From: a virus
Lineage: Duplodnaviria; Heunggongvirae; Uroviricota; Caudoviricetes
IMG/VR virus record: IMGVR_UViG_2690316285_000010
Direction: 5' to 3' (one strand)
DNA length: 41,117 nucleotides
In this document: piece by piece, positions 14,657 to 41,117 of the stretch
Layout: each line of letters opens with the position of its first letter
Numbering within the stretch: position 1 is the first letter of the stretch
The notes under the pieces: model-generated
What the model was told of the DNA's origin: nothing
Database searches by the model: none
Seen by the model: the letters and a program-made list of their open reading frames with translations, nothing else
Translations under genes and position numbers: made by a program

Positions 14657-16470
14657 CAGAACTCCATAACCGTGAAACGCTCGTTTTCTCCTTCGCCGCC
14701 AATCGGTTCGTTAATGACAGCAAGCATGGTTGCCCACGCAAGGTCGCCGTGGCTGATCCCCCTCGCGCGGTCCGTTTCGTAAGTGATAAAACCGCCCGGT
14801 GTTTTCACCTTACGCACGGCGTTAAAGGCCGCAACCAGCTCGCGTTCGGCGCGATCGTATTCCCACCGCCCGGCACGCATTATTTGCAGCATTTTCAGTA
14901 CCAGCGACCGTTTTGATGACAGCGTGAAGGTGTAAGGGATGGCGGCGGGAAAAAACCGTTTCACTATCTGATAGACGGCATCCCCGTGCCCGCCCGTCGC
15001 ATCAATGCCGATGTGTTCCACGTTGTAGCGATACGTGAACTCTTCAATAACTCTGGCCTGCTCTTCAAATTCCAGCCCCTGAACGCGTCGCGTCTCCACC
15101 GTTCTGAAACGACCACCAGGAACAGCCGGAGGAACCACCACGGACACAGCGCCGCTGTCGCCGTTACCACTGCTGCCGTTTGCGTCATACCCAATCCATA
15201 CCGGACGATTCCCCATCGGGCGGGGGGCAAAGGGTTTCCAGTCTTTCCAGTCGTCGTATCCGTCAACACCGCAGCCAATCAGGATATTCAGGTTAAATGC
15301 CGATTCCCCTTCGCGGACAAACTCACACATATAGAGATTGCGGAACTCGTCTTCGGTGTTTTCATCACGAATTTCATCAATATCGGTGTGTTTCCAGCCG
15401 TGATTAACCACATCTTCCAGCGTGACAATTTGCCGCCACGTCCGGTCAGGGCAGATAAGCCCGTTATGCAGCGTTTTCCAGTCCACAGAAAAACGCTGGC
15501 GTTTATGCGCGGCCTTTTTCTCGTTCCAGCGGTCGCCGTTCCAGTAGGCGTATGCCTCGTGCGTTTCGGTGGATGGCGTGGAGAAGCAGGTGCGCCGCAG
15601 TCCGCTGAGGGTTGCCATAGCGCCAGCCACCTTGCGCAGTTCAGCAAAGCGACTGACCCAGAAAAATTCATCAAAATAAAAATTGCCCGTGTAAGATTGC
15701 GCCGTCGCAGCAGAAGTGCCGAGAAAATGCATCTCTGCGCCGTTGGAGAGGATGATTTTATCGCCCCCTTTCAGCTCCACATCGACTTCAGCCGCGGCCT
15801 TCTGAATAATGCTTTTAAACTGGAACGCCTGACGACGCGACGCAGACAAAAAAATCTGGTTACGCTGGTAAGGTTGTGCCACATCGTCACGCAGCGCCAT
15901 CAGCAGTGCTTCCTGTGCAAAATACCAGGTCGCCCCAATCTGTCGGGATTTCAGGATCATCCTGTTACGTATCCCGGCTTCNNNNNNNNNNNNNNNNNNN
16001 NCCGGCTTCCCTGCAAAGCGTCAGGGAGTCAAACCAGCCCCGCTGATGCCACTCCAGCCTGCTGATGATTTTTTCCCGCAGTGCGGCAATCTGTTCCGGC
16101 GTGAAATGATTTTTGAGTTTTTTCGCCCGGCCTTTCTTTCCTGTGGCCGTCGCATCCGGCTGGCCATCATGCAGTTTTTTAAGCTGCCGGGNNNNNNNNN
16201 NNNNNNNNNNNNNNNNNGCTGCCGGGTCAGCAGGTCTATTTCCTTAAAGTCACCACCTGTTTTATTCTGTTTTTCAGTAAGCTGGATGAGGCGCGCATCG
16301 ATGGACTGCGTGACACGCTGCACGGGTGGCGTTTCATCCCACTGGTCGCGTTTTTTCCACGCATAAATCGTGTTCGGGTTTATTCCCATCAGACGTGATA
16401 TTTCTGCGGGCGGATAACCCTGCCAGTAAAGTTGCCGCGCACGCTGGCGCACAAAAGCGTCCTGAATCAT
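14656..16470 (-). CDS. P: terminase large subunit (P2 gpP-like), interrupted by two N-runs
   Basis: ORF 14656-15960 matches the nuclease half of P2 P, ORF 16021-16470 the N-terminus. N-runs 15982-16001 and 16192-16217 are flanked by duplicated 9-bp sequences; removing the duplication restores frame (RQ / RQLKKLHDGQPDATAT). Confidence 0.8.
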
Positions 16471-24988: not shown

Positions 24989-26421
24989 ATGAGTACCACA
25001 ACACGAAAATTTAAAACCATTATCACCGATACGGGTGCAAAAAAATTAGCGCAGGCAACCGCGCCAGATGGGAAACCTGTCCGCCTGACACATATGGCCG
25101 TGGGTGACGGCGGCGGTACTTTACCCACGCCAGACAGTAAGCAGACCCGTCTTGTGCATGAGGTGTGGCGACATACCGTTAATCGCGTCACCCTGGACGC
25201 AACACATCAGAACCACATTATTGCGGAGCTGGTTATTCCTCCTGAAACGGGCGGATTCTGGATCCGGGAAATTGGTGTGTTTGATGAGCACGGCGATTTG
25301 ATCGCGGTAGGCAATACTGCCGAAAGTTACAAGCCAACCGTTGCCGAAGGATCCGGACGTGCACAAACATTTCGCACCATTCTGACCGTATCCAGCACTG
25401 CCACTGTGGCGCTTACCGTGGATAACACCATGGTGATGGCCACAGTGAATTACGTGGATGACAAACTGAAAGAGCATGAACAGTCACGACGTCACCCGGA
25501 CGCCTCGCTGACCGCAAAAGGCCTTGTCCAGCTCAGCAACGCCACCAACAGCACGTCTGAAACGCTGGCAGCGACACCAAAAGCCGTTAAGGCAGTAATG
25601 GATGAAACGAACAAGAAAGCCCCATTAAACAGCCCGGCACTGACCGGAACGCCAACAACACCAACTGCGCGACAGGGAACGAATAATACCCAAATCGCAA
25701 GCACGGCTTTCGTTATGGCTGCGATTGCCGCACTTGTAGACTCTTCGCCTGATGCACTGAACACACTGAACGAGCTGGCGGCGGCGCTGGGCAACGACCC
25801 GAATTTTGCGACCACCATGACTAACGCGCTTGCGGGTAAGCAACCGAAAGATGCCACNTCTCAGAGCAAAGTTGCTGCTGAATCCGCGGCAACGCGCGCC
25901 GAGACAGCAGCAAAACGGGCAGAGGATATTGCATCCGCCGTGGCGCTTGAGGATGCGAGCACGACGAAAAAGGGGATAGTACAGCTCAGCAGTGCGACCA
26001 ACAGCACTTCCGAGTCACTGGCGGCAACGCCAAAAGCGGTTAAGGCGGTAATGGGTGAAACGAACAAGAAAGCGCCCTTAAATAGTCCTGCACTGACCGG
26101 AACGCCAACAACACCAACTGCGCGACAGGGAACGAATAATACCCAAATCGCAAGCACGGCTTTCGTTATGGCTGCGATTGCCGCCCTTGTAGATTCGTCA
26201 CCTGATGCACTGAACACGCTGAACGAGCTGGCTGCGGCGCTGGGCAACGACCCGAATTTTGCGACCACCATGACTAACGCGCTTGCGGGTAAGCAACCGA
26301 AAGATGCCACTCTGACGGCGCTGGCGGGGCTTGCTACTGCGGCAGACAGGTTTCCGTATTTTACGGGGAATGATGTCGCCAGCCTGGCAACCCTGACAAA
26401 AGTCGGGCGGGATATTCTTGC
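24989..26421 (+). CDS. H: tail fibre protein, constant N-terminal part (P2 gpH-like); 3' end lost at an N-run and IS4
   Basis: N-terminus MSTTTRKFKTIITDTGAKKLA... and the QLSSATNSTSE..LAATPKAVK segments match P2 H. Reading frame ends at ...VGRDIL, then N-run 26422-26430 and the IS4 end. Confidence 0.8.
25531..26307 (+). repeat. tandem duplication of about 327 bp within the tail fibre gene
   Basis: Unit 1 about 25531-25857 and unit 2 about 25981-26307, roughly 95% identical, encoding LS.ATNSTSE.LAATPKAVKAVM.ETNKKAPLNSPALTG...AGKQPKDA twice. A single N (25858) sits at the end of unit 1. Confidence 0.7.
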
Positions 26422-26426
26422 NNNNN

Positions 26427-27852
26427 NNNNGCCAGTCAGTTAAGCAACTGACTGGCTCTTTTTCGGGGCTGTGGGGTATTTCCAGGGCCTCTCCTTTACC
26501 ACTCTCGGGAAGGCCCTTTCCCTTCTCGTCGGTAATTTCACAAGTTGTCCCATACTTGCAAGATCGCGCATCAGCTCCGGTATACGTCCCGGTGAAGCGC
26601 CCTGCAATGTCATCAGCATTCTCATCACCATTCCGCATGATTCTGAGAAACTCAGTTGATTCGGCCAGTAACCTTTCAGATGTTCCGCCATTTTAATCAT
26701 CTGATATCTCACCAGATTATAAGCCAGTAAGACACCCCACAGCTCTTGCTCCACAAGCTCCGGCTTTTTACTTCTCAGCGTCAGCCTGCTCAGTTGCATC
26801 GTCTGTTTTATCTCCCTGTATCCCAGTTCGATTTCCCAGCGATGACTGTACAGATCCGCCATTTCTCCTCCGGGGAAGCGCATGGCGTCCGTCATCGACG
26901 TCAGCAGATGGCAGACTTTTCCTTTGCGCGTCACGGTCAGCAGGCGGGCTGTCACTTCATTTCCCAGTCCCGGCCACTTTTTTCGTGCCTGCGGGCTGGT
27001 TTTCAGCTTCACCAGATGATCGCCTTTACCCAGTTTTCTGAGCTCTTCATATTGCGCTCCCTTTCTGAGAGGTATCATCCAGTGGCGGTGTTCTCCCGCC
27101 AGGCTCCAGGCATTTAACAGTCCCAGTGAGTAATAACCTTTATCCATTAACGTCAGAGTGTTATCGCCGGTTTGTTCTATAAGTTGCTCAGCAAGCTCAT
27201 TTTCGCTGTTCTTCATCGTGCCGAAGGCTGCAGCCGTCAGCAGATGGCTGGTCAGTTCCATCTGGCAGACCATTTTGACCTGCGGGTAGAGCGCCGGGTT
27301 CCCGGCATGTGTCTGGCGGGGGAAGGCTGCATCGTTCTCTGGTGTATCCGGTGTGCGCCAGAACACACCATCGATGGCCAGCAGGGTCAGGCCGCACCAG
27401 TGCGGATGCGGCGTGGCGTTATGCCAGAGCTGCGCTGTTTTCGTGAACACGCGGCGGACAGCCTCACTTCCCAGGCGCTGGCGGGCCTGAATAACGGCAC
27501 TGGGGGCAACGAAGGGGCGATTGCCCGGCAGCATGATGTCCAGGCGATTCACAATCTGGTGAAGAGGTTCTTTACGCTCAAGCGCCATGCCAACAATACA
27601 CCAGACCATCATTTCGAGGGGAAGACGGCGCTTGCGTAGCGTTACAGTACCTGATTCGGCAAGGCAACGAGAGATGAGTTCGGGGTCGAGGTAATCCCCC
27701 AGAGAAGTCAGTGGGTTACGCAGAGAATCGTAACGGGATACCAGATCAAGAGCCTGTCCAATGTGCATAAAAAAATCCGGAAACAAGTGAGCGTTTCCGG
27801 ATTCTTACACAGCCACTGGATCGGTCAACTGATCCTTAACTGATCGGCATTA
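26427..27852 (-). mobile_element. IS4 insertion sequence
   Basis: Encodes a protein matching E. coli IS4 transposase; visible terminus at 27835-27852 reads TAATGCCGATCAGTTAAG (reverse complement), the IS4 inverted repeat as I remember it. The other end runs into N-run 26422-26430, so the start coordinate is approximate. Confidence 0.85.
26440..27768 (-). CDS. insG: IS4 transposase (DDE)
   Basis: 442-aa protein from [10 protein letters not shown]... matches IS4 InsG from memory; ORF-track start at 27786 is an upstream extension. Confidence 0.9.
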
Positions 27853-27978
27853 CTACTACAAGCTGAGTGTTAACGATCGCCCGTTGTGGGAGATTGACCT
27901 GCTGAACTTCATTTACCGGAAGGACGGCAGGGACATTGTGCCCGATCGCATCCGTTCCGCGCTCGGGCTTGGCTGATA
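27853..27978 (+). pseudogene. 3' remnant of tail tube gene (P2 gpFII-like), truncated by IS4
   Basis: Open frame ...NDRPLWEIDLLNFIYRKDGRDIVPDRIRSALGLG* directly abutting the IS4 end; resembles the C-terminus of P2 FII as I remember it (...EIDTINMIEKVNGVDRLEQHRRNIGL); sits just upstream of E as FII does in P2. Confidence 0.55.
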
Positions 27979-28030
27979 AGTAATATGCAGGCGGCGCAGT
28001 GCGTCGCCTCTGACTGAAAGGAGTTTCCTG

Positions 28031-28396
28031 ATGAAAGAGACGAAAAACATCGATACCGAAAACACGGTCGTTGCTGACACTGTGAAAGAAACCAGTGAGC
28101 GTGGCGTAAAACTTACCCAACCAATTGAGCGAGGCGGCGAAAAAATCACGTATGTGGAGATCACCGGGGCTATTGAGCAGGCTGGATCTCTGCGAGATTT
28201 GTCGCTGTCTGATGTGCTGAATTTGAAAGCGGAATCCATGTTTACGCTGCTGTCACGCGTGACATCACCGCGACTGGATGAAGTGACGATCAAAAAAATG
28301 GCATCCCGTGACTTTATTCAGTTATGTGTGGTTGCCGTAAATTTTTTGAGCGGTGCGGACTCTGGCGAGAAGAACGAACAGGCGACGGAAGCCTGA
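28031..28396 (+). CDS. E: tail assembly chaperone (P2 gpE-like)
   Basis: AAGGAG RBS; 121 aa; followed by overlapping -1 frame extension. Confidence 0.8.
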   Translation: MKETKNIDTENTVVADTVKETSERGVKLTQPIERGGEKITYVEITGAIEQAGSLRDLSLSDVLNLKAESMFTLLSRVTSPRLDEVTIKKMASRDFIQLCVVAVNFLSGADSGEKNEQATEA

Positions 28397-28560
28397 TCAC
28401 GGTTGTGTGCTTTGAGCACATAGAAGACTTTGTGGCGGATATTGCCGCCATTTTTAACTGGTCGCCCGCCGAAATCTTCATGATGACGCCCGGCGAAGTG
28501 GTTAGCTGGCGTGAGCGGGCGGCACTTCGCAGCGGGAATGCAGACAATGAAGACTCTTGA
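28031..28560 (+). CDS. tail assembly chaperone E+E' (-1 programmed frameshift product)
   Basis: Slippery heptamer T_TTT_TTG at 28342-28348 in the E frame; the -1 frame is open from there to 28560, as for P2 E/E'. Confidence 0.65.
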
Positions 28561-31135
28561 TATCCGGGTCGCTTTCAGCGCCGTTGACAGGCTGACCCGG
28601 CCTGCCGAAAACGCCCGCCGCCTGATGGGGCAGTTTGGTGACTCCATCCAGCGAACGCAGGGGGCGATCAAAAATCTCGAGCGTCAGGCGCGTTCATTTG
28701 AGCGCGCCCGTGACGCTGTCAGTAAAGCGGATGCGGGCATCGTGAAAGCACGACGCCAGCTTAACGCCCTTAATCAGTTACAACGCACGGGTACAGTGCT
28801 CAGCGAAAAACAACAAAAGCTGATGCAGCAGTTAAGCACCCGGCTTGAACGCCTGAATGAATCGCGCACACGGGAAATTCAGAAAATGCGGGAACTTGGC
28901 GGAGAGCTGAAACGCCACGGCATTTCCCTGACAGGCAGCGATAACACCATCCAGCAGGCCATCAGACGCACCGGACAATACAACAACCAGCTTGAACGCG
29001 AACGGCGGGCGCTTGCGCGTGTAACGCAGGCGCGTGAGCGGTATTCACGCGCGCAGGAAACAGCGGGAAAACTGAAAACAGGTGGTGCGCTGGCAACAGG
29101 TGCGGCGGCAGCGGGCGGCTATGCTGCCGGGCGTTTTTTGCAGCCCGCTATCGGGTTCGGGAAAGAGATGTCCCGTGTTCAGGCACTGACGCGAATCGAT
29201 AAAAACAGCCCGCAGTTTAAGGCGCTGCGTGAGCAGGCGTTAAAACTTGGCTCTGAAACGCAGTTCACCGCAGGCGATGCCGCCAGTGGACAGGCATTTC
29301 TTGCAATGGCTGGTTTCACACCGCAGGCCATTCAGGCTGCGCTTCCCGGCGTGCTGAGCATGGCAACGGCTGGCGGTATGGACCTCGGCGAGACGGCGGA
29401 TATTGGTTCCAATATCCTGACGCAGTTCGGCCTCTCTGCTGACCAGATGGACCGGGTCGGTGACACACTTACCGCAGCGTTTACCCGTACCAACACTGAC
29501 CTTCGCGCACTGGGCGAAACCATGAAATATGCAGGTCCGGTGGCGGGTAAGCTGGGAATATCGCTGGAGCAGGCCGCAGCGATGGCGGGCGTGCTGGCGA
29601 AGATGGGTATCAGGGGGAGTGATGCAGGTACAGCGTTGCGTAAAAGCCTGGCCAATCTGTCATCACCGCCAAAGGCAGCGGCAGAAGCACTGAAAGAGCT
29701 GGGGGTGTCAGTTGCTGACGCCAAAGGCAAAATGCGCCCGATGGAGAATGTGCTGGCCGATCTCTATAAAGCCACCCGCAAATACGGGGAGGTTGACCGG
29801 GTATCGTTCTTTAAGGACATTGCCGGAGAAGAGGCTTTCACATCATTTATGGGCCTCGTTGATGCGGCAGGTGACGGCTTCTTAGCCAAACTGAGAAAAG
29901 AACTTGAAGGCGCGCGCGGTGAGGCAGAACGCACGGCAAAGGTTATGGCCAATAACCTTGATGGCAACCTGAAATCACTCGGCAGTGCATGGGAAGGTCT
30001 GCGTATTCGCATCAGTGATCTGGTTGACGGTCCGCTGCGTTCTGTCACGCAGTGGCTCACGCGGGTTGTCTCAAAGGTGACGGCGCTGGCGCAGGCCCAC
30101 CCGGCACTGACGCGCCAGTTACTGATAGCGGGAGGCGCACTGCTGGCGACAACAGCAACGGTTGGTTCGTTGTCTCTGGTTATTGGGGTGCTTCACGGGA
30201 AGCTGGCTACGTTGCGTCTCGGTTTTTCTCTCCTGACCGAATCAATGAATGTTGTCAGGGTTCTGCCTGCATTATGGGGAATGGTGACGGGTTCCGTTTC
30301 TTTACTTGGTGGCGCTATCGGGGCGCTGTTCAGTCCGGTTAGTCTTATCGTGGCTGCGCTTGCCGGAGCTGCCGTTCTTATCTGGAAATACTGGGATCCC
30401 ATCAGGGCATTTTTTGCCGGGGTGTTCAGCGGGATTATGGAAAGGCTGACCCCGTTGCGCGAAACCTTTGAACGGTTTGGCCCTGTTTTTGATGTCGTGC
30501 GCGATGGGATTATTCAGGTCTTTAACTGGTTTAAATCGCTGCTGTCACCGATGGAGTCCAGCAAGGAAACGCTGGATAAATGTGCCAGTGCTGGCGAGAT
30601 ATTCGGTAACGTTCTTGGCGGTGCGTTACAACTTGTTCTGACACCTGCAAAAATGCTACTGGATACGCTGGCGTGGATACTTGAAAAACTTGGCGTCCTT
30701 CCGGATGAAGCGGAAAGGGCGCGCAAGAAAATCGAAGACGCACAGCGTGCGGCCATTCTTCAGGACAAGGTTGCCTTGCTTCAGGGGGACCTGGCGAAAA
30801 TCAATCCGCCGAAGCCTGTGGAAAATGGCAATGGCACCGGAGGTGATAAACCCAAAGACAACAAACCGCTCACAGACAGCAATACCGGGACGCTACGCAG
30901 ACTCAGCAAAATTGCTGATAACACAGGTAAGCTGGTTGATGAGACGAAAAAACGCATTGGCCCCGGCGATATTGTCTTTAAGAACCTGCCCCGCGCACTT
31001 GCTGTTCGTGGGGAGTGGCAGGAGCGGAAGATTGCGCAGGTCAGTAAGCCTGCCCCCGCAATTAATATCACACCCGTGGTCCCGGCTCCGCTGCCTCCGG
31101 CGCTGGTCCCTGTTGTTGCGGCCAGCTCCCGCCCG
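28511..31135 (+). CDS. T: tail tape measure protein (P2 gpT-like), 3' end hidden in N-run
   Basis: Long alpha-helical Ala/Gly-rich protein with hydrophobic central segments; 875 codons before N-run 31136-31361. Start codon uncertain (GTG 28511 or ATG 28538/28547). Confidence 0.8.
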
Positions 31136-31363
31136 NNNNNNNNNNNNNNNNNNNNNNNNNNNNNNNNNNNNNNNNNNNNNNNNNNNNNNNNNNNNNNNNN
31201 NNNNNNNNNNNNNNNNNNNNNNNNNNNNNNNNNNNNNNNNNNNNNNNNNNNNNNNNNNNNNNNNNNNNNNNNNNNNNNNNNNNNNNNNNNNNNNNNNNNN
31301 NNNNNNNNNNNNNNNNNNNNNNNNNNNNNNNNNNNNNNNNNNNNNNNNNNNNNNNNNNNNNTC

Positions 31364-31858
31364 ATGGCCATGATGATGATCTACGGCATGTTTGTTTTTG
31401 AGCTGCGTACATTGCCGCATCAGCAGTTACAGCAAAACAAAAGCTGGCGGCATGTGAAAAATGAACGCGTTAACCGTTCGGCAAGCTGGCAGTATATCGG
31501 TGCAGGTGATGAGCGCATCGTTCTTTCTGGTGTGCTTTATCCTGAAATTACAGGTGGCGAAGTGTCGCTGTCGCTGCTGACCACGCAGGCGTATACAGGA
31601 CGACCCTGGCCTCTGATTGATGGCGTCGGGCAGATTTACGGCATGTATGTCCTGACCGAAACGAATACGACCCGCTCCGAGTTTGATCGCTACGGTAAGG
31701 CGAAAAAGATAGAATTTTCACTGACTCTTGAACGCTGTGATGAGGATTTGCGGGAGCGCCTGCAATCCTCATCGTTCAGCGATATGCTGTCCGGCTTCAA
31801 AGATAAGGTAACATCATCCCTTAACAGCGCGGCCAGTTCAGTTAAAGGGTTGTTCTGA
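31364..31858 (+). CDS. U: tail protein (P2 gpU-like)
   Basis: MAMMMIYGMFVFELRTLPHQQLQQNKSWRH... vs P2 U MMMVLGLFVFMLQTVPYQELQYQRNWRH...; begins immediately after the N-run. The ORF track fuses T, the gap and U into one 1115-aa ORF. Confidence 0.8.
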   Translation: MAMMMIYGMFVFELRTLPHQQLQQNKSWRHVKNERVNRSASWQYIGAGDERIVLSGVLYPEITGGEVSLSLLTTQAYTGRPWPLIDGVGQIYGMYVLTETNTTRSEFDRYGKAKKIEFSLTLERCDEDLRERLQSSSFSDMLSGFKDKVTSSLNSAASSVKGLF

Positions 31859-31871
31859 TTTAACACAAAAA

Positions 31872-31904
31872 CCGCTAATGGTCAGATTAGCGGTTATTTT
31901 GTTT
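31872..31904. terminator. bidirectional rho-independent terminator between U and the invertase gene
   Basis: CCGCTAAT-ggtcag-ATTAGCGG hairpin with T-tracts on both sides (TTATTTTGTTT on plus, TTTTTGTGTTA on minus). Confidence 0.6.
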
Positions 31905-32481
31905 CCTGACTCTTCTCTATTGTTCCGATTGATTCTCCTGCGGGGTGGTAACGATAAATCGTCGATATACCAATGCCGTAAATTATTGCCAGTTGTTTTC
32001 TGTCGTGCCCGTTTTTGATCAGCCTTGCTATTTGCTCATGCTGTTCTTTTGTCAGCTTCGGTCGACGTCCGCCTGTGCGCCCCCGTGCGCGTGCTGCCGC
32101 CAGTCCGGCCAGTGTACGTTCAACAATTAATTCACGTTCCATTTCAGCCAGGGCACCCATCACGTGGAAGAAAAAACGCCCCATTGGAGAAGATGTATCT
32201 ATGCTGTCGGTCAGACTGCGAAAATTAATTCCTCGCTCCCGTAGTTCCCCGACGAGAGAAATCAGATGTTTCATGCTTCGCCCGAGGCGATCCAGTTTCC
32301 AGACAACCAGCGTGTCACCTTTTTGAAGGCGCTTTAAAGCGCGTTTTAATCCCGGTCGGTCTGTCTTTGTCCCGCTTAATTTATCTTCAAATATTTGTTC
32401 ACATCCTGCACAAACAAGAGCGTTTCGTTGCAGGTCTGTATTCTGGTCATTTGTTGATACCCTTACATAGCCAATCAGCAC
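31894..32481 (-). CDS. pin: serine DNA invertase (Pin/Gin/Cin/Min family)
   Basis: [36 protein letters not shown]... is close to e14 Pin through the catalytic domain (Ser in VRVSTNDQ), C-terminal HTH diverged. Start placed at GTG 32479-32481; ORF track uses TTG at 32499. Confidence 0.88.
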   Translation of the reverse strand: MLIGYVRVSTNDQNTDLQRNALVCAGCEQIFEDKLSGTKTDRPGLKRALKRLQKGDTLVVWKLDRLGRSMKHLISLVGELRERGINFRSLTDSIDTSSPMGRFFFHVMGALAEMERELIVERTLAGLAAARARGRTGGRRPKLTKEQHEQIARLIKNGHDRKQLAIIYGIGISTIYRYHPAGESIGTIEKSQETK

Positions 32482-32535
32482 GCTGAATCTCCCGTCCAAA
32501 AGCGCAAATCATGCCATGCAGGCCGGAAACGGCCA

Positions 32536-32561
32536 TTATCTAAAACCTCGGTTTACAGGAA
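32536..32561. other. invertase crossover site (gix/pix-like), site 1
   Basis: TTATCTAAAACC-TC-GGTTTACAGGAA: two 12-bp inverted half-sites around a 2-bp core, near-identical to the Mu gix site as I remember it; 55 bp from the invertase start. Confidence 0.8.
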
Positions 32562-32670
32562 ACGGTAAACAAGGCTGGTAACGCCGTGCAAAAAAATGGC
32601 GATACGTTGTCCGGTGGACTTACTTTTGAAAACGACTCAATCCTTGCCTGGATTCGAAANNNNNNNNNNN

Positions 32671-33260
32671 TCTTCTATTGTACGACGGTGTTCGTCAAAA
32701 GCTAATTGTCGCCAGGGACTTTCGAATGAGTATTTGCTGAGCCAGCGTCGGTGTGCAGGGCCCCAATCTGCTCGCCCGACATAATGGACCCCATGAACCA
32801 GAAGAAACGATTTCAGACGTTGCCTTGCATGCCGTAAATCATCGCGGGCAGATGCCCATGCCCGGGCCAAATCCCGGAATGCCTCATCTTCAATGCCGGG
32901 TACGTAGACAGCAGAAAGATCTCCTGCACGCAGTGAACGCACAAGTCTGATGGCATCACGGCGATCGGTTTTAACCCGCTCCCCCGGTTTTTTCGGGATA
33001 AGTGAGGGGGCGCAGACCATGCAGTCAAAACCGGATTTCACCAGCCGACGATAAAGTCCATAACCACAGGGCCCCGCTTCATAAACGATACTGACCTGCG
33101 ATGACTTTGACCTGAGACGTTTACAAAGATTCTGAATATCAGTAGGTGATGTGCCAATTTTACCCATCAGTTCAACAGGTTCTGAATTGATAGCATAAGC
33201 GACAGTAATCGATTCTTTGTGAACATCTAACCCGACGTACAATGTGTTATTGTTGTTCAT
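32671..33260 (-). mobile_element. 5' part of an IS110-family (DEDD) transposase gene, cut off by N-run 32660-32670
   Basis: N-terminus MNNNNTLYVGLDVHKESITVAYA... is typical of IS110-family transposases (and related Piv-type invertases). Only about 196 codons precede the gap. Confidence 0.6.
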
Positions 33261-33386
33261 GCTGGCCTCCGTGGTGGAAATACCGGGGTGTAGCAACAGC
33301 TCACCCATGCGGCTCTGACAACGATGTTAACCCGCGTTAAATATCCCACGTTGGCCAGCATCTGTCTCACGGAAAGTCATACTGCC

Positions 33387-33656
33387 TTACATTGTGTCTG
33401 GTTCTTCCGGCCACTCAATATCAGGTGCAGTTGATGTATCAACACGGTTCAGCAACACCCGATACTTCTTCCAGGCTTCCAGCAACGAGTTTTCTTCCTC
33501 CGTTGCGATCTCCAGATCTACAGCATCCTGAAGTGGCGCAATATGCTCACTGAATTCCTGGATGTAGAACTGTGTGGTGACGGTCTTCCAGCCATTCGGC
33601 TCCTGCTGTATCGAAGCATACCAGGCTATTTCAATATCGCTATGCTGCGGCAGCAT
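33387..33656 (-). CDS. short tail-fibre-assembly-like protein (C-terminal domain only)
   Basis: 89-aa ORF ending ...[28 protein letters not shown], the conserved C-terminus of Tfa proteins; N-terminal half unlike the other Tfa copies here. Confidence 0.5.
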
Positions 33657-33712
33657 TTAACCCCTTGTAATTCATCGCCATAATTGATTTAATTCACAAA
33701 TAAAACTATAAT

Positions 33713-34381
33713 ATGGTGAAATTAATGAAAAAAAACACAGATGATGGGGCTAAAATTTACACACCACTTACCCTAAAGCTTTATGACTGGTGGGTTTTGG
33801 GAGTATCAAATCGGCTTGCATGGGGATGTCCTACAAAGGAACACCTTCTTCCACACTTTCTGGAACATTTAGGTAACAACCATCTGGATATTGGTGTTGG
33901 AACTGGGTTTTACCTTACTCACGTACCTGAGAGTAGTCTGATATCTTTAATGGATTTGAACGAAGCTAGCCTGAACGCGGCATCTACAAGGGCTGGGGAA
34001 TCAAAAATTAAACATAAAATTAGCCATGATGTTTTTGAACCTTATCCCGCGGCGTTACATGGTCAATTTGATTCCATTTCCATGTTTTACCTTCTTCACT
34101 GCCTGCCTGGAAATATATCTACAAAAAGCTGTGTAATACGCAATGCGGCGCAGGCCTTAACTGATGATGGAACTCTATACGGAGCCACAATTCTTGGCGA
34201 TGGAGTTGTGCACAATAGCTTCGGTCAAAAACTGATGCGCATTTACAATCAGAAAGGCATCTTTTCAAACACAAAAGATTCCGAAGAAGGCTTAACACAT
34301 ATACTCTCAGAGCATTTCGAGAATGTTAAAACCAAGGTTCAAGGTACTGTAGTAATGTTTTCCGCTTCAGGGAAAAAATAG
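33713..34381 (+). CDS. class I SAM-dependent methyltransferase (substrate unknown)
   Basis: 222-aa ORF with motif I LDIGVGTGF; AT-rich coding sequence; followed by a hairpin CCGCAGCACGT...ACGTGCTGCGG at 34390-34422. Confidence 0.6.
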   Translation: MVKLMKKNTDDGAKIYTPLTLKLYDWWVLGVSNRLAWGCPTKEHLLPHFLEHLGNNHLDIGVGTGFYLTHVPESSLISLMDLNEASLNAASTRAGESKIKHKISHDVFEPYPAALHGQFDSISMFYLLHCLPGNISTKSCVIRNAAQALTDDGTLYGATILGDGVVHNSFGQKLMRIYNQKGIFSNTKDSEEGLTHILSEHFENVKTKVQGTVVMFSASGKK

Positions 34382-34579
34382 CATCCAACCGCAGCACGTT
34401 CTTGCTTAAGACGTGCTGCGGCATAATCCCAATGATTACTCCCTGACAGGGTTCGTAGGCCACTCAATATCAGGTGCAGTTGATGTATCAACACGGTTCA
34501 GCAACACCCGATACTTTTTCTAGGCTTCCACCACCAGCACGACAAGATGCCGCATACAGTGACCCAGTCAGTCCAGTTT

Positions 34580-34780
34580 TCAGACAACCAGTGCGTCACC
34601 TTTTTGAAGGCGCTTTAAAGCACGTTTTAATCCAGGTCGGCCTGTCCTTGTTCCGCTTAATTTATCTTCAAATATTTGTTCATATCCTGCACAAACAAGA
34701 GCGTTTCGTTGCAGGTCTGTATTCTGGTCATTTGTTGATACCCTTACATAGCCAATCAGCACGCTGAATCTCCCGTCCAA
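34580..34780 (-). pseudogene. diverged 5' fragment of a second invertase gene (about 66 codons)
   Basis: Translates to [19 protein letters not shown]...LQKGDALVV*; differs from the intact pin at several nucleotides (C->Y, K->R, D->G, T->A), so it is not an assembly duplicate. Confidence 0.6.
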
Positions 34781-34816
34781 AAGCGCAAATCATGCCATGC
34801 AGGCCAGAAACCGCCA

Positions 34817-34832
34817 TTATCTAAAACCTCGG
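34817..34832. other. crossover site 2 (left half visible; rest in N-run)
   Basis: TTATCTAAAACCTCGG then N-run 34833-34923; sequence after the gap resumes CGGTTTACGAGAAC..., a variant right half. Confidence 0.5.
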
Positions 34833-34923
34833 NNNNNNNNNNNNNNNNNNNNNNNNNNNNNNNNNNNNNNNNNNNNNNNNNNNNNNNNNNNNNNNNNNNN
34901 NNNNNNNNNNNNNNNNNNNNNNN

Positions 34924-35897
34924 CGGTTTACGAGAACTCGGCACAAGCGGGGAGAAAATACCGTTACTCAGTACAGCGAATACCTGGACTAATCGACAAA
35001 CATTCAGCGGTGGCCTTTCTGGTGAACTATCCGGCAATGCTTCTACAGCTNNNNNNNNNNNNNNNNNNNNNNNNNNNNNNNNNNNNNNNNNNNNNNNNNN
35101 NNNNNNNNNNNNNNNNNNNNNNNNNNNNNNNNNNNNNNNNNNNNNNNNNNNNNNNNNNNNNNNNNNNNNNNNNNNNNNNNNNNNGTGCGTTTGCCTTAGG
35201 GAAAACAGGAAGCACCGTTGCGAATGATAAAGCAGTTGGATGGAACTGGAGTAGCGGAGCCTATAACGCAACTATTAGTGGTGCATCAACGTTAATTATT
35301 CATTTTTATAATTAATCCGAAACTGAGCTGCAGGACAACTTCCTTCTCCCATATAAAAATGGCGGTATTTTTTATCGTTCAGCCCGTGATGGTTATGGTT
35401 TTGAAGCCGACTGGTCCGAATTTTACACCACCAGAAAACCTTCAGCAGGAGATGTTGGTGCACTGCCGTTATCTGGTGGTCAACTGAATGGTGCACTGGG
35501 TATCGGAACATCCAGTGCTCTTGGCGGTAATTCGATTGTATTGGGTGATAATGACACGGGCTTTAAACAAAAAGGCGATGGTAATCTGGATGTTTATGCT
35601 AATAACGTCCATGTTATGCGCTTTGTCTCCGGAAGCATTCAAAGTAATAAAACCATAAATATTACGGGACGTGTTAATCCCTCGGATTACGGTAACTTTG
35701 ATTCCCGCTATGTGAGAGATGTCAGACTTGGCACACGAGTTGTTTAGACCATGAAGAAAGGCGTGATGTATGAAAAATCAGGCCATGTAATCACGGGGCT
35801 TGGTATTATCGGTGAAGTCGATGGTGATGATCCGGCAGTATTCAGACCAATACAAAAGTTAATTAACGGAACATGGTATAACGTATCGCAGGTATAA
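34924..35897 (+). pseudogene. tail fibre variable C-terminal domain (P2 H-like type), disrupted
   Basis: Encodes ...TWTNRQTFSGGLSGELSGNASTA, (gap 35051-35184), ...[21 protein letters not shown]..., ...[18 protein letters not shown]...[18 protein letters not shown]. Interrupted by a 41-bp inversion (35311-35351) and an in-frame TAG at 35745. Confidence 0.6.
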
Positions 35898-35899
35898 TC

Positions 35900-36131
35900 A
35901 TGCAGCATTTAAAAAACATTGTCGCAGGTAATCCAAAAACCGTTGAACAATACCAGCTAACAAAGAATTTTGATGTTATCTGGTTATGGTCCGAAGATGG
36001 AAAAAATTGGCATGAGGAATTAAAAAACTTTCAGGAGGATACAATAAAACTGGCTTACACAGTTGAGGGAATAATTATTGCTATAGACAAGGATGTATCA
36101 GCAATTAATCCAGAAGGTTTAAGTGTCGTTG
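35900..36131 (+). CDS. tail fibre assembly protein, N-terminal part (P2 gpG-like), cut off by N-run
   Basis: [37 protein letters not shown]... matches the Tfa/P2 G N-terminus; ends at N-run 36132-36142. Confidence 0.65.
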
Positions 36132-36142
36132 NNNNNNNNNNN

Positions 36143-36450
36143 CCGGTCGGTCTGTCTTTGTCCCGCTTAATTTATCTTCAAATATTTGTTCACATCCTGC
36201 ACAAACAAGAGCGTTTCGTTGCAGGTCTGTATTCTGGTCATTTGTTGATACCCTTACATAGCCAATCAGCACGCTGAATCTCCCGTCCAAAAGCGCAAAT
36301 CATGCCATGCAGGCCGGAAACGGCCATTATCTAAAACCTCGGTTTACAGGAAACGGTAAACAAGGCTGGTAACGCCGTGCAAAAAAATGGCGATACGTTG
36401 TCCGGTGGACTTACTTTTGAAAACGACTCAATCCTTGCCTGGATTCGAAA
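36143..36450. repeat. exact 308-bp copy of 32352-32659 (invertase 5' end plus crossover site 3 at 36327-36352)
   Basis: Base-for-base identical to 32352-32659 by eye; each copy has an N-run on one side. Confidence 0.8.
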
Positions 36451-37363
36451 TACTGACTGGGCAAAGATTGGGTTTAAAAATAATTCGGATGCAGACACCG
36501 ATTCCTACATGTGGTTTGAAACAGGCAACAACGGCAATGAATATTTCAAATGGAGACACCGCATCATTGGCACCCGGCCTAAAGACCTGATGAATCTTAA
36601 ATGGAATGCTTTGTCTGTTCTTGTTGAAGCCCTTTTCAGCAGTGAAGTGAAAATATCGACAGTCAATGCACTGAGGATATTTAATTCATCTTTTGGTGCC
36701 ATTTTTCGTCGTTCTGAAGAATGCCTGCATATCATCCCTACACGAGAGAATGAAGGGGAAAATGGTAATATAGGGCCACTACGCCCCTTTACGCTTAATC
36801 TCAGAACTGGCCGGATAAGCATGGGGCATGGTCTTGATGTTACAGGGGATATATTTGCAAACCGTTTTGCAATTAACAGTAGTACCGGCATGTGGATTCA
36901 TATGCGTGACCAGAATGTTATTTTGGGACGTAATGCGGTATCCACTGATGGTGCTCAGGCTTTGCTCCGTCAGGACCATGCCGACCGCAAATTTATGATT
37001 GGCGGTCTGGGAAATAAGCAATTTGGCATCTACATGATTAATAACTCAAGGACAGCCAATGGCACCGATGGTCAGGCGTACATGGATAATAACGGGAACT
37101 GGCTTTGCGGCTCGCAAGTTATTCCCGGCAACTATGGCAATTTTGATTCCAGATATGTGAAAGATGTTCGACTTGGTTCACAGCAATATTATGGAGTGAA
37201 CAACTGGCAAACATGGAATTTTCAGTGCCCGTCAGGCTATGTACTGACGGGGATTAACGTACAGGATACCGGAAAAAACTCTGCCGATAATATTGCAGGC
37301 GTTCATTACAGGCCAGTGCAAAAGTATATAAATGGCACTTGGTATAATGTGGCGAGTATTTAA
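36377..37363 (+). CDS. tail fibre variable C-terminal domain, cassette A
   Basis: Frame is open from within the crossover site ([19 protein letters not shown]...) to ...[17 protein letters not shown], the conserved tail-fibre tip end; would be expressed only when fused to the constant part. Confidence 0.7.
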
Positions 37364-37364
37364 T

Positions 37365-37892
37365 ATGATGCACTTAAAGAACATAAAAGCAGGTAATGCT
37401 AAAACAGTGGAGCAGTATGAGTTAACAAAGAAGCACGGAGTCATCTGGCTTTACTCTGAGGACGGAAAAAACTGGTATGAGGAAGTGAAGAACTTTCAGC
37501 CAGACACAATAAAGATTGTTTACGATGCAAATAATATTATTGTCGCCATCACCAAAGATGCCTCCACGCTTAACCCTGAAGGTTATAGCGTCGTTGAGGT
37601 TCCTGATATTACAGCTAATCGTCGTGCTGATGATTCCGGTAAGTGGATGTTTAAGGACGGAGCTGTGGTTAAACGGATTTATACGGCTGACGAACAGCAA
37701 CAACAGGCCGAATCACAAAAGGCCGCATTGCTTTCCGAAGCTGAATCAGTCATCCAGCCGCTGGAACGCGCTGTCAGGCTGAATATGGCAACAGACGAGG
37801 AACGCACACGACTGGAAGCATGGGAACGCTACAGTGTTCTGGTCAGCCGTGTGGATACGGCAAAGCCAGAATGGCCACAAAAGCCTGAGTAA
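37365..37892 (+). CDS. tail fibre assembly protein, cassette A
   Basis: [11 protein letters not shown]... to ...[26 protein letters not shown]; start 2 nt after the variable-domain stop. Confidence 0.8.
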
Positions 37893-37912
37893 AAATTAAG
37901 GCCCGATANNNN

Positions 37913-37938
37913 NNNNNNNNNACCTCGGTTTACAGGAA
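37913..37938. other. crossover site 4 (left 9 bp inside N-run 37909-37921)
   Basis: Visible part ACCTCGGTTTACAGGAA identical to sites 1/3, followed by the same [15 protein letters not shown] junction frame. Confidence 0.6.
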
Positions 37939-37983
37939 ACGGTAAACAAGGCTGGTAACGCCGTTCAGCGTTCCGGCGATAAA

Positions 37984-38879
37984 ATGACCGGAGAACTGAA
38001 AATTGGCACGGTGAATGCGCTGCGAATTTTCAATGATACCTTCGGTCTAATTTTCCGTCGTTCAGAAGATTTTCTTCATTTCATTCCGACGGCTGAAGGA
38101 CAAGGCGAAAACGGTAATATCGGCCCATTAAGGCCATTCGCTATAAATCTGAGAACAGGTGCTATATCTGTCAGCCACGGGGCCAAAATTAAAGGAGGTC
38201 TAGCTATTGGAGCTACTGATAACGCACTGGGTGAAAACTCCATTGTTCTGGGAGATAACGACACCGGATTTAGGCAAGATGGAGATGGTATTATTAGCTT
38301 CTATTCAAATGGTTCGCGCATCGGACATATTGATGAGTTAGGATTACATCTTTATAAAGATNNNNNNNNNNNNNNNNNNNNNNNNNNNNNNNNNNNNNNN
38401 NNNNNNNNNNNNNNNNNNNNNNNNNNNNNNNNNNNNNNNNNNNNNNNNNNNNNNNNNNNNNNNNNNNNNNNNNNNNNNNNNNNNNNNNNNNNNNNNNNNN
38501 NNNNNNNNNNNNNNNNNNNNNNNNNNNNNNNNNNNNNNNNNNNNNNNNNNNNNNNNNNNNNNNNNNNNNNNNNNNNNNNNNNNTGGTGCGCAAGTTGCGT
38601 CTAGTGGCGATATTTATGGTTCAGTGTGGGAAAACAACTGGTTAAGCACATGGCTGCATAATCATGTCGTTCGGGATATTCGTCTTGGCAGCATTGAATA
38701 TAAAAACGTATNNNNNNNNNNNNNNNNNNNNNNNNNGCGACTACGGCTTTGGCGATGCGTCAGGTTATGTTTTAACAGCCGCAATTAACAGCAATGCGGA
38801 TGATATTGTCGACACTGTTGCCAGAAGGCCAATTCAGAAATTGATTGGGGGAATATGGTACAACGTGGGGAGTGTTTAA
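37984..38879 (+). CDS. tail fibre variable C-terminal domain, cassette B (two internal N-runs)
   Basis: ...[22 protein letters not shown]... to ...[18 protein letters not shown]; N-runs 38362-38583 and 38712-38736 fall inside. Confidence 0.65.
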
Positions 38880-38880
38880 G

Positions 38881-39408
38881 ATGATGCACCTGAAAAATAT
38901 TAAGGCCGGGAATCCGAAAACACCGGAACAATACCAGCTAACTAAAAAAGCGGGCGTGGTATGGCTCTTTTGCGAAGATGGCAAAAACTGGTATGAGGAA
39001 CAAAAGAATTTTCAGCCAGACACCATAAAAATTGCTTACGATGAGAACAACATCATCGTTGCTGTCAGTAAAGACGTTTCAACTATTAATCCTGAAGGGC
39101 TAAGCATAGTTGAAGTTCCTGATATTACGGCAAATCGTCACGCAGACAATAACGGAAAATGGATGTTTCTGGATGGTAAAGTAGTAAAGAGGGAATATAC
39201 AGAACAGGAACTGCAACAACAGGCCGAATCACAAAAGGCCGCATTGCTTTCCGAAGCTGAATCAGTCATCCAGCCGCTGGAACGCGCTGTCAGGCTGAAT
39301 ATGGCAACAGACGAGGAACGCACACGACTGGAAGCATGGGAACGCTACAGTGTTCTGGTCAGCCGTGTGGATACGGCAAATCCTGAATGGCCACAAAAGC
39401 CTGAATAA
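38881..39408 (+). CDS. tail fibre assembly protein, cassette B
   Basis: [30 protein letters not shown]... full-length Tfa, same C-terminal half as cassette A. Confidence 0.8.
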
Positions 39409-39440
39409 AAATTAAGGCCCGATAGCGGGCCTTCTCTCAT
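39409..39440. terminator. bidirectional terminator between convergent Tfa genes
   Basis: GGCCCG-atag-CGGGCC hairpin at 39419-39434 with T-rich flanks on both strands; the same hairpin half precedes N-run 37909. Confidence 0.55.
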
Positions 39441-40146
39441 TCTGGTTGTTCGGGAAACGTTACTGGCAGGCTGGAGGTGTCTGTGGATTCAACCTTCTGC
39501 GCATAGAGCATCCACTCGGTTAATTTTTGTTTATTCTCGTCGGAAATAATGCCCAGCCGTAGCTGTGAGTCCCATAGCTGGGTTTTATCCCTGACGAGCT
39601 GTAGCAGGCTTTGCTTTTCATTTTCCGCTTGTTGCCTCTGCTCTTCCCCGGTATAAGTTCGCTTTATCACTACGCCATCTTTGAACATCCATTTACCTGA
39701 AATATCAGCCCGGCGATTTGCTGTAATATCAGGCAACTCAACGACACTNNNNNNNNNNNNNNNNNNNNNNNNNNNNNNNNNNNNNNNNNNNNNNNNNNNN
39801 NNNNNNNNNNNTTGCTCTTCCTCGGTATAAGTTCGCTTTATCACCGCACCATCTTTGAACATCCAGTTGCCCGAAATATCAGCCCGGCGATTTGCTGTAA
39901 TATCAGGAACCTCAACGACGCTTGCGCCTTCCGGATTAATTGCTGAAACATCCTTTTCAATACAAATAATAACGCCGTTGTGGTCATAGACCATTTTCAA
40001 CGTATCAGGCTGAAAGTTCTTTTGTTCCTCATACCAGTTTTTCCCATCCTCTGTATAAAGCTATTTGATGTTAAATTGTTTCGTTAGCTGGTATTGCTCT
40101 TTTGTTTCAGGATTACCAGCAGAAATGTTTTTTAAGTGCATCATCG
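39437..40146 (-). pseudogene. tail fibre assembly protein, cassette C (in-frame TAG and N-run)
   Basis: Minus-strand reading [36 protein letters not shown]...: TAG where the other copies have TGG (plus 40061-40063). N-run 39749-39811 is flanked by about 90% identical 100-bp sequences. Confidence 0.6.
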
Positions 40147-41117
40147 TTAAATACTCCCCGCGTTATACCACGTCCCATTAATGCAATACTGAATTGGCCT
40201 TGCCTGAGTTGTATCAATTAGTTCATCTCTGTTTGAGTTAACGGAACCGGTAACAACATAACCTGACCTGTCAGACCATCCGGGACCATTCCATGTCTGA
40301 ACAGATAACAGACCACCAAGGCGAATACCTGTAATAAACCTTGAGTTACATTCTGCCTGCGTATATGCACCAACATCTCCCGCAGAGGGTTTGCGGGTTG
40401 TGGTGTAAAACTCTGACCAGTCAGCTTCAAAGCCATAACCATCACGCGCTGAACGATAAAAAATACCGCCGTTCCTGTAATTCACGCGGAACTGTACAGC
40501 AGGGCAGCTCCCCGTATTCATATTGAAGTGGAGGATTAATGTCGATGCGCCACCAATGTTTGCGTTATAGACCCCGCTATTCCAGTTCCAGCCAACAGCT
40601 TTATCATTTCCGACAGTGCTTCCTGTTTGCCCTAAAGCAAATGCAGGTTGTTGATTTTTCGTGTTGTAGTCTCGTCGCCAGCCAGGAGCGTAAGCATCAC
40701 CATGATTAATATAAGTGAATTGAGCGTTAGTAATTCCGCCACCGCTGGACGTGCTCGGCGTGGTAACGCGTATGGTCATTGCGCCGCGAGTGCCAATAAC
40801 TTCCACCACAGCACCTGCAAGACAAATATTTCCGCAACCTGTATCTGTAATGACCTTATTATTTGCATAAGCCCATGAGCCTTTGCACATCCAGTAAGGA
40901 TGGTTAAATGCTCCCTGACTCTCCAGCCACGAAATAAATTGCGCGGTTGTCCAGACCTGACTATCGCCACCAATATTCAGCCATGAGCTATATGCGCGGC
41001 AGGCACCAATATTTTTGGTGAAGGTATCTTTCCCCGGAATATCTGCGCCGTTCTGGTTTTTCTGTAATGCGCCAGAAGCCTGATTTACCGTTTCCTGTAA
41101 ACCGAGGTATTCGATAA
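40147..41117 (-). CDS. tail fibre variable C-terminal domain, cassette C (5' end at window edge)
   Basis: Minus-strand frame open from crossover site 5 ([18 protein letters not shown]...) to ...[17 protein letters not shown]; ORF track lists 40147-40890 from an internal Met. Confidence 0.7.
41092..41117. other. crossover site 5, inverted relative to sites 1/3/4
   Basis: Plus strand TTCCTGTAAACCGAGGTATTCGATAA = reverse complement of TTATCGAATACC-TC-GGTTTACAGGAA. Confidence 0.75.

Follow-up and report, generated by a model that had tools for sequence, protein, structure and literature searches.

A 308-bp repeat in a prophage scaffold as a very probable unmerged overlap between neighbouring contigs

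The identical 308-bp segment (R) that occurs twice in the analysed window, a stretch of 41,117 nucleotides, is almost certainly an overlap between neighbouring contigs that was left unmerged in the scaffold, and thus an assembly error, not biology. Contigs A and B (Table 1) would be true neighbours within a P2-family prophage, overlapping by exactly 308 bp, and the scaffolder would have failed to merge them and placed three contigs from a lambdoid prophage remnant (32671-36131) between the two. Most likely, the real genome reads through pin, the crossover site and cassette A with R present once, and the intervening block sits elsewhere, its right side running into the reverse complement of 38737-39748.

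Table 1. Features of the window that bear on the repeat and on the contigs around it
Feature	Coordinates	Strand	Content or evidence
Foreign contig, 563 bp	25859-26421	+	Lambdoid stf constant part, adjoining its crossover site on the upstream side; wrongly placed behind the P2 H gene
Contig A	31362-32659	+	3' part of a gpU-like tail gene, pin, crossover site and first 98 bp of cassette A; last 308 bp are R
pin invertase	31894-32481	minus	Resolvase and HTH_7 domains
R, copy 1	32352-32659		5' 130 bp of the pin CDS, spacer, 26-bp crossover site 32536-32561, start of cassette A
N-run, probable false join	32660-32670		Contig A to mid-ISSso6; 0 of 5,426 genomes; right flank mid-transposase of a multi-copy IS
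Y1, foreign contig, lambdoid prophage remnant	32671-34832	+	98.6% to NCTC86/EC958; 99.9% to IMG/VR contig L008
ISSso6 (Y1), cut by contig end	32671 to about 33400	transposase minus	IS110-family transposase N-terminal domain
Tfa fragment (Y1)	33387-33656	minus	Caudo_TAP fragment
Class I SAM methyltransferase (Y1)	33713-34381	plus	Pfam
Truncated pin relic (Y1)	about 34572-34816	minus	Truncated invertase
Relic crossover site, left 16 nt (Y1)	34817-34832
Y2, foreign contig, 127 bp	34924-35050	+	Relic crossover site (remainder) and beginning of the variable part of lambdoid stf
Y3, foreign contig	35185-36131	+	Lambdoid stf variable C-terminal part, first 77 tfa codons (35900-36131)
N-run, probable false join	36132-36142		Mid-tfa to mid-pin; no colinear match in 5,426 genomes
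R, copy 2	36143-36450		Prefix of contig B; crossover site 36327-36352
Contig B	36143-37908	+	R, then cassette A: variable tail-fibre C-terminus (to 37363), tfaA (37365-37892)
Y4, Y5, Y6, foreign contigs	37922-38361, 38584-38711, 38737-39748 (span 37922-39748)	+	Other cassette of the lambdoid remnant's invertible segment
Contig C, P2-like prophage	39812-41117	+	Part of tfaB (minus), variable cassette B (40147-40890, minus), inverted site 41092-41117

The repeat and the junctions around it

The window is the whole of WGS record CXDI01000026.1 (GCA_001250495.1), a draft-genome scaffold in which 13 N-runs delimit 14 contigs; no mention of CXDI01 or of the assembly accession was found in the literature. 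The lengths of the N-runs are variable and noisy, one run being a single N. At the 20-, 26- and 91-N runs the flanks truly overlap, by 8, 9 and 3 bp respectively, in references that are 99.9-100% identical there, the 25-N run corresponds to a real gap of 3 bases, and other runs exceed the true gap by 3-52 bases. The idea that the N-runs are one-to-one masks of real sequence was rejected on account of these overlaps and overestimated gaps. Mismatches to relatives concentrate at the contig ends.

The two copies of R match at 308 of 308 positions, the identity cannot be extended by even one base on either side, and the inner end of each copy directly abuts a run of 11 N, which bears out what had been noticed from the letters alone. 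The chance expectation of an exact 308-bp repeat in 41 kb is essentially zero. R is the exact suffix of contig A and the exact prefix of contig B, and it represents the sole long end-overlap among the contigs of the window. When the longer, mechanically called pin ORF (31894-32499, minus) is considered, R takes in 148 bp of it. A paralogy boundary was tried as the cause of the contig breaks and was rejected at both ends of R, for the left end sits within the homology between pin and the pin relic and the right end lies 72 bp past the last stretch common to another cassette.

Evidence on the order of contigs A and B, and on the junctions, comes from the genomes of other strains, which leaves a slight formal probability of a rearrangement peculiar to this strain. 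When A and B are merged so that R is read once, at least 49 complete E. coli genomes match the product, unbroken and over 100% of its length, at about 96% identity. Identity to A and B is 99.9-100% in the nearest relatives, L020 and L023, such that contig A is 100% identical to L023 over 31362-32546 and contig B differs from L020 by two mismatches over 36334-37908, and a further relative, L026, is continuous through the crossover site at 99.8%. All ten long loci in which the 195-aa Pin is identical share the order H, tfa, tfa(-), Hvar(-), pin, U, T, and the methyltransferase/IS110 block is found in none of these ten.

The junctions as scaffolded fare differently. The passage from R into the IS is absent from all 5,426 complete genomes searched, and that from the block into R has no colinear match in the same set; an apparent match in strain 510016 (H96, 98% coverage) consists of two pieces that are not colinear. 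Moreover, the 11-base gap between R and the block cannot be right, because the left end of the block truncates the multi-copy ISSso6 midway through its transposase. The sequence-only reading had proposed that one locus was placed twice with alternative neighbours, so that the block might not lie between pin and cassette A. The single locus, its alternative neighbours and the displacement of the block all hold, the merged form being contiguous in relatives, both scaffold junctions being absent and Y3 joining the reverse complement of Y6; no contig, however, was placed twice, since it is two adjacent contigs that overlap by 308 bp and stayed unmerged owing to the foreign contigs set between them.

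The lambdoid block and other misplaced contigs

The block at 32671-36131 is 97-98.6% identical to a prophage remnant found beside trpA/ompW in NCTC86, EC958 and many other strains. The genes read in it beforehand were recovered, namely the IS110-family transposase N-terminal domain, the Caudo_TAP fragment, the class I methyltransferase and the truncated invertase relic. The "IS110 fragment" was correctly placed in its family, but it is the multi-copy ISSso6 cut by the end of a contig and is not necessarily a fragment in the genome. The attribution of 35185-36131 to a "P2-like cassette" did not survive, as colinearity with L008 and the comparison with NCTC86/EC958 place this stretch in the invertible segment of the lambdoid remnant and not in the P2-like prophage.

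L008, an IMG/VR contig that contains no N's, carries Y1, Y2 and Y3 in that order, followed by the reverse complement of 38737-39748 and then that of 38584-38711. Y1 and Y2 have 3 bp in common where they meet, and the 91-N run ahead of Y2 is spurious for this reason. Y3 and the reverse complement of Y6 share a 10-bp end overlap, and when joined they give an intact in-frame Tfa of 177 aa; read onward into R, Y3 yields junk in all three frames. As judged from these alignments, the true right-hand neighbour of Y3 is thereby shown to be the reverse complement of 38737-39748.

Y4 begins at the centre of a crossover site, and the orientation of Y4-Y5-Y6 in the record is opposite to that of Y3. These contigs are colinear in ZY22049, and in EC958 the homologue of the stf-constant contig is followed, 29 bp further on, by the homologue of Y4. 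The stf-constant contig itself (25859-26421) is 98.8% identical to the stf gene of NCTC86 and 95.9% identical to EC958. On this sequence evidence it and the contigs at 37922-39748 are assigned to the same lambdoid remnant as the block. Contig 38737-39748 and contig 39812-41117 share a paralogous overlap of 110 bp at 91% and are not in series.

The methyltransferase protein occurs in 13,959 blocks, and its position is invariably terminal within a lambdoid prophage. Among the 10 places shown of these 13,959, none has a P2-type pin/site/cassette junction; nine are without an invertase nearby and the remaining one, L035, has a Rac-type pinR about 1.1 kb downstream.

The Pin switch and the origin of the false joins

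The ORF at 31894-32499 (minus) matches PF00239 (E = 1.5e-50) and PF02796 (E = 1.8e-13) in a Pfam search, and tfaA contains a Caudo_TAP domain. The 26-bp crossover sites, at 32536-32561 (again at 36327-36352) and, inverted, at 41092-41117(-), lie around opposed cassettes of fibre C-terminus and tfa, and the record stops exactly at the outer end of the inverted site. Contig C is 99.4% identical to L020 and L023, with seven of its eight mismatches falling within its first 60 bp. Identity to the window is 99.4% or more in both of these relatives, and the segment is known from them in both orientations, as cassette A adjoins pin in L020 and the constant part of H in L023. By its gene and site content, the underlying P2-family locus is classed as a Gin/Cin/Pin-type switch with two sites and two cassettes. 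The strain is IS-rich, with an IS4 in the tube gene and ISSso6 as well.

Serine DNA invertases are known to switch tail fibres in the G segment of Mu (Gin), the C segment of P1 (Cin) and the P segment of e14 (Pin), and in the Gin and Hin systems a Fis-dependent recombinational enhancer lies within the 5' part of the invertase gene. The present locus resembles the Gin, Cin and Pin switches in having a Resolvase plus HTH_7 invertase that adjoins a segment with inverted 26-bp sites and two opposed sets of variable fibre C-terminus and tfa, but differs from them in that its host prophage is of the P2 family (P88/Xuanwuvirus-like), where it is flanked by the H gene and an oppositely oriented block of tail genes. 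Multiple-inversion systems are represented by Min of plasmid p15B and by the shufflons. The scaffold as written mimics such a system, with three direct sites and one inverted, and with pin succeeded by an IS, a methyltransferase, a second pin fragment and at least three fibre cassettes, in the manner of a shufflon with cargo; the real P2 locus, in contrast, has the two sites and the pair of cassettes seen in every relative, and the extras are foreign. A real three-cassette multiple-inversion region was rejected, as it is contigs of the lambdoid remnant that carry the third site (37922) and the additional cassettes. The shufflon-with-cargo architecture is, on the comparisons above, judged not to exist. 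Annotation, prophage boundaries or claims of a "novel invertible cassette" taken from 25.8-41.1 kb of the record would be wrong. Once the foreign contigs are removed, two ordinary known loci are left, a two-cassette Pin-type switch of a P2-family prophage, which is unremarkable, and a decayed lambdoid tail-fibre switch.

Over short stretches, the pin relic, relic site and stf/tfa cassettes of the lambdoid remnant show 90-100% identity with the P2 locus. Over 261 bp, pin and the pin relic are 95% identical, with an uninterrupted exact match of 122 bp; the cassette starts of the two tail-fibre loci have 43 nt in common. The false joins are likely to have arisen from ambiguous read pairs across these paralogous repeats, inversion heterogeneity may have worsened the ambiguous pairing, and a greedy gap filler would then have extended the contig ends into the false gaps from both sides. 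A region that was "heterogeneous or repetitive" had been offered as the cause. The repetitive half of this stands, in that paralogy between the two tail-fibre loci appears to suffice for the false joins; inversion heterogeneity in the culture is possible but is not needed.

SSPACE and GapFiller are greedy and capable of false joins (PMC5320598). The errors of such greedy tools in high-throughput bacterial pipelines (PMC5320598) resemble the present ones in the noisy N lengths, in overlapping ends split by N's, in the chaining of repeat-rich contigs (IS elements, paralogous tail-fibre cassettes) and in the clustering of mismatches at contig ends. The braiding of two loci with one 308-bp overlap left unmerged is, in contrast, a specific outcome and not a described error class. 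From the gap pattern, an SSPACE/GapFiller origin of the errors is inferred for this record.

Two other explanations would give the joins of the scaffold a biological basis. The lambdoid block could truly be part of the P2-like prophage, with a direct copy of R on each side, through a segmental duplication that arose, for example, by illegitimate or IS-mediated recombination. A real 308-bp repeat would likewise give contig breaks at its boundaries, so that the ending of R at N-runs is by itself non-discriminating, and the IS load of the strain (IS4 in the tube gene, ISSso6 in the block) is also in keeping with this idea. However, neither junction occurs in the 5,426 complete genomes or in the ten loci with the identical Pin, and both novel junctions are N-runs devoid of continuous sequence. 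The left one needs the rest of ISSso6, not 11 bases, and the right end of the block, which breaks off within tfa, is better paired with the reverse complement of 38737-39748, a stretch elsewhere in the record that supplies the remainder of tfa and makes Tfa intact again. Moreover, we know of no mechanism for a direct duplication of 308 bp with one end in mid-pin and the other 98 bp into a fibre cassette. Such a duplication is therefore considered extremely improbable.

It is also very unlikely that the cross-links record genuine Pin-mediated recombination between the P2-like sites and the lambdoid relic sites in part of the culture. R would then be single-copy in each molecule, and true hybrid junctions in a subpopulation (pin flank with lambdoid cassette; pin relic with cassette A) would have misled the scaffolder. 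The sites are indeed near-identical (P2 TTATCTAAAACCTCGGTTTACAGGAA, relic TTATCTAAAACCTCGGTTTACGAGAA), several contig boundaries fall at the midpoint of a site (34832, 37922) or at a site's end (41117), and L020 and L023, which are near-identical relatives, differ in the orientation of the P2 segment. Experiments have moreover demonstrated that the invertase of one cryptic prophage can invert a segment of a second one, PinQ of Qin acting in trans on the e14 P segment (PMC12529663). The present case is alike in pairing an intact invertase in one prophage with a fibre segment bearing near-identical sites in a remnant that has a truncated pin; it differs in that trans inversion is here no more than suggested by the occurrence of the Y3-type cassette on different sides of the segment between genomes. 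Against cross-recombination, none of the window's contigs contains a hybrid junction, the ambiguous placement of read pairs is explained by paralogy alone, and recombination at widely separated loci, which should seldom occur, would entail the inversion or deletion of large parts of the chromosome. If it did occur, a single invertase could mediate the exchange of cassettes between prophages or a large chromosomal inversion.

The 308-bp overlap between two contigs

The window is identical to record CXDI01000026.1 (41,117 bp; NCBI assembly GCA_001250495.1) and is therefore one complete draft-genome scaffold, which 13 N-runs divide into 14 contigs. It represents an E. coli/Shigella-type chromosome segment (nlpC-btuDEC) with a P2-family, P88-like prophage. 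The sequence-only reading had observed that 32352-32659 recurs at 36143-36450, each copy beside an N-run, and had proposed that one locus was placed twice with alternative neighbours. The copies are indeed identical at 308 of 308 positions, an identity that on direct comparison extends not one base further at either end, with 11 N immediately after copy 1 (32660-32670) and 11 N immediately before copy 2 (36132-36142). When all contig ends were tested against each other, the duplicate was found to be an exact suffix/prefix overlap of contig A (31362-32659) and contig B (36143-37908). Its components are listed in the table; the pin product is an invertase with Resolvase and HTH_7 domains.

Components of the repeat, the lambdoid crossover site, and N-runs for which the true distance was taken from comparison with references
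Feature	Position	Detail
Repeat: start of pin (minus strand)	CDS 31894-32481	first 130 bp; 148 bp with the longer mechanical ORF 31894-32499, which starts upstream
Repeat: spacer		between pin start and crossover site
Repeat: crossover site TTATCTAAAACCTCGGTTTACAGGAA	32536-32561 and 36327-36352	26 bp
Repeat: variable tail-fibre cassette		first 98 bp
Lambdoid remnant: crossover site TTATCTAAAACCTCGGTTTACGAGAA	34817-34832 + 34924-34933	near-perfect (comparison loci L001, L004, L008)
N-run	start 15982	20 N written; flanks overlap by 8 bp
N-run	start 16192	26 N written; flanks overlap by 9 bp
N-run	start 31136	226 N written; 223 bases
N-run	start 34833	91 N written; flanks overlap by 3 bp
N-run	start 35051	134 N written; 82 bases
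N-run	start 38362	222 N written; 191 bases
N-run	start 38712	25 N written; 3 bases

Merged in silico with the repeat kept once, contigs A and B find an end-to-end, single-piece match in 49 or more complete E. coli genomes. The exact 195-aa Pin is present in over 2,000 collection blocks, and all ten long loci returned for it share the order H, tfa, tfa(-), Hvar(-), pin, U(-), T(-), the pin-to-cassette interval being otherwise empty save for an IS3-family insertion in two. The pair with the insertion, L020 (CP032523.1) and L023 (UGZB01000001.1), comprises the closest relatives: contig A differs from them at 0-1 of 1,185 positions, contig B differs from L020 at 2 of 1,575, and the merged sequence equals the L020 junction minus the IS exactly. 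A further locus, L026, has the IS-free junction at 99.8%. The underlying P2-family locus is an ordinary two-cassette Pin-type fibre switch.

The IS3-family element sits exactly inside the pin-proximal crossover site (L020 8673-9935, L023 8671-9935; window 32543-32546), where its flanks overlap by 4 bp, and judged by this position it should freeze the switch in both relatives, each in the orientation opposite to the other's; unlike theirs, the site in the window is intact. A second IS3-family copy lies in a tfa gene of L020.

Origin of the intervening block

Between the two copies lies the block 32671-36131. Its left 730 bp are ISSso6, an IS110-like element found in up to 17 places per genome and cut here in mid-transposase by the contig end, and an 11-base distance to the repeat is therefore impossible. 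A query spanning this junction found both sides covered in none of 5,426 genomes. The query across the other junction returned one apparent match, in strain 510016, which was rejected as support: its two pieces are in the wrong order, so it reflects a paralogous cassette.

In NCTC86 and EC958, a lambdoid prophage remnant next to trpA/ompW matches 33409-34832 at 98.6% identity; its order is tfa fragment, class I methyltransferase, small ORF, tfa fragment, truncated recombinase and fibre cassette. L008, an N-free IMG/VR contig, contains the ISSso6/tfa junction of the block and is colinear with 32921-34832 (99.9%), 34924-35050 (100%) and 35185-36131 (97.5%), beyond which it passes directly into rc(38737-39748) at 98.4% and then rc(38584-38711) at 100%. 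In the window itself 35185-36131 has a 10-bp end overlap with rc(38737-39748), and joining the two yields an in-frame 177-aa Tfa with its canonical C-terminus restored; reading from 36131 into the repeat gives no sensible product in any of three frames. In EC958, 29 bp separate the homologue of 25859-26421, a misplaced 563-bp contig holding the constant part of stf, from that of 37922-38270, with which contig 37922-38361 begins (349 bp). Taken together, all the foreign contigs make up one lambdoid locus, in the order 25859-26421, site, 37922-38361, 38584-38711, 38737-39748, rc(35185-36131), rc(34924-35050), rc(32671-34832). This locus is a decayed fibre switch elsewhere in the genome. The suspicion that the block does not truly lie between pin and the following cassette is borne out, as both junctions lack support elsewhere and the block has better neighbours.

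Beside the lambdoid crossover site lies a pin relic reduced to about the first 60 codons. That the 35185-36131 cassette adjoins this relic in L008 but stf in NCTC86 means that the segment has flipped; the invertase of another prophage may have acted in trans, by analogy with PinQ, which has been shown to act on the e14 segment (PMC12529663). The exact 222-aa class I SAM methyltransferase (33713-34381) is present in 13,959 collection blocks and, in the places shown, always at a lambdoid prophage end adjoining tfa fragments; it resembles a conserved moron.

Competing explanations and a possible mechanism

A real duplication in the genome is extremely improbable: the left junction falls within an IS, the tfa gene is rescued by the other partner of the block end, and either junction is totally absent elsewhere. 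Scarcely more probable is a subpopulation of genuine Pin-mediated recombinants between the two loci. Prophage invertases are known to act in trans (PMC12529663), which would fit such a subpopulation, but none of the contigs contains a hybrid junction. The repeat being the exact A/B overlap, and the merged form being contiguous in relatives, support one locus appearing twice; the duplicate is not a real genomic feature. What lies beneath it is ordinary biology: the P2-family prophage has a Pin-type switch with two cassettes, and another part of the genome holds a lambdoid switch that has decayed.

Between pin and the pin relic, the two loci are homologous over 261 bp (95%, with one exact stretch of 122 bp); their crossover sites are nearly identical, and their cassettes have 43 nt in common at the start. 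Read pairs over such common stretches would be placed ambiguously, a greedy scaffolder could thread contigs of both loci into a single path, and a gap filler could then lengthen A and B into the false gaps, so that each came to carry a copy of the other's end. SSPACE and GapFiller, which are greedy and prone to false joins (PMC5320598), could by analogy be candidate tools behind this record. Inversion heterogeneity in the culture may have contributed, because L020 and L023 carry the invertible segment in opposite orientations, but is not required.

Reliability of the scaffold

The scaffold is unreliable in general. That the N-runs mask real sequence was rejected, since written and true distances disagree in all seven cases; their lengths look like noisy read-pair estimates. 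Mismatches cluster at contig ends, and contigs 38737-39748 and 39812-41117 do not stand in series; they have a paralogous overlap of 110 bp (91%). Judged against every relative (L003, L006, L009, L018-L027), 26431-41117 is inverted relative to 1-25857. The right 15 kb has probably been flipped and joined via the 563-bp stf paralogue and IS4.

In contrast to every related prophage, the window has its tail block, which comprises tube', E, T, U, pin and the invertible segment, reversed with respect to V-W-J-I-H. The final position of the record, 41117, falls precisely at the crossover site whose expected neighbour is the constant part of H, near 25.9 kb. A full IS4 copy (26431-27865; 99.5% to IS4 in many genomes) lies, inside a contig, directly against the major tail tube gene, at a point corresponding to L020 14626; the gene is intact in L020 and L023, and a real junction here would mean a defective prophage. 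Within the terminase large-subunit gene, the 190-bp contig 16002-16191, with N-runs on both sides, overlaps its neighbours by 8 and 9 bp, and L011 and L014 match all three at 100%. This contig may represent a short sequence that also occurs in a second P2-like element of the genome, or reflect a local coverage problem.

The record starts (1-30) just outside nlpC, where the close relatives L012, L014 and L015 have an IS630-type (DDE_3) transposase gene; with the end at a crossover site, both record ends are thus repeat boundaries, which together with ISSso6 suggests a Shigella sonnei-like, IS-rich host.
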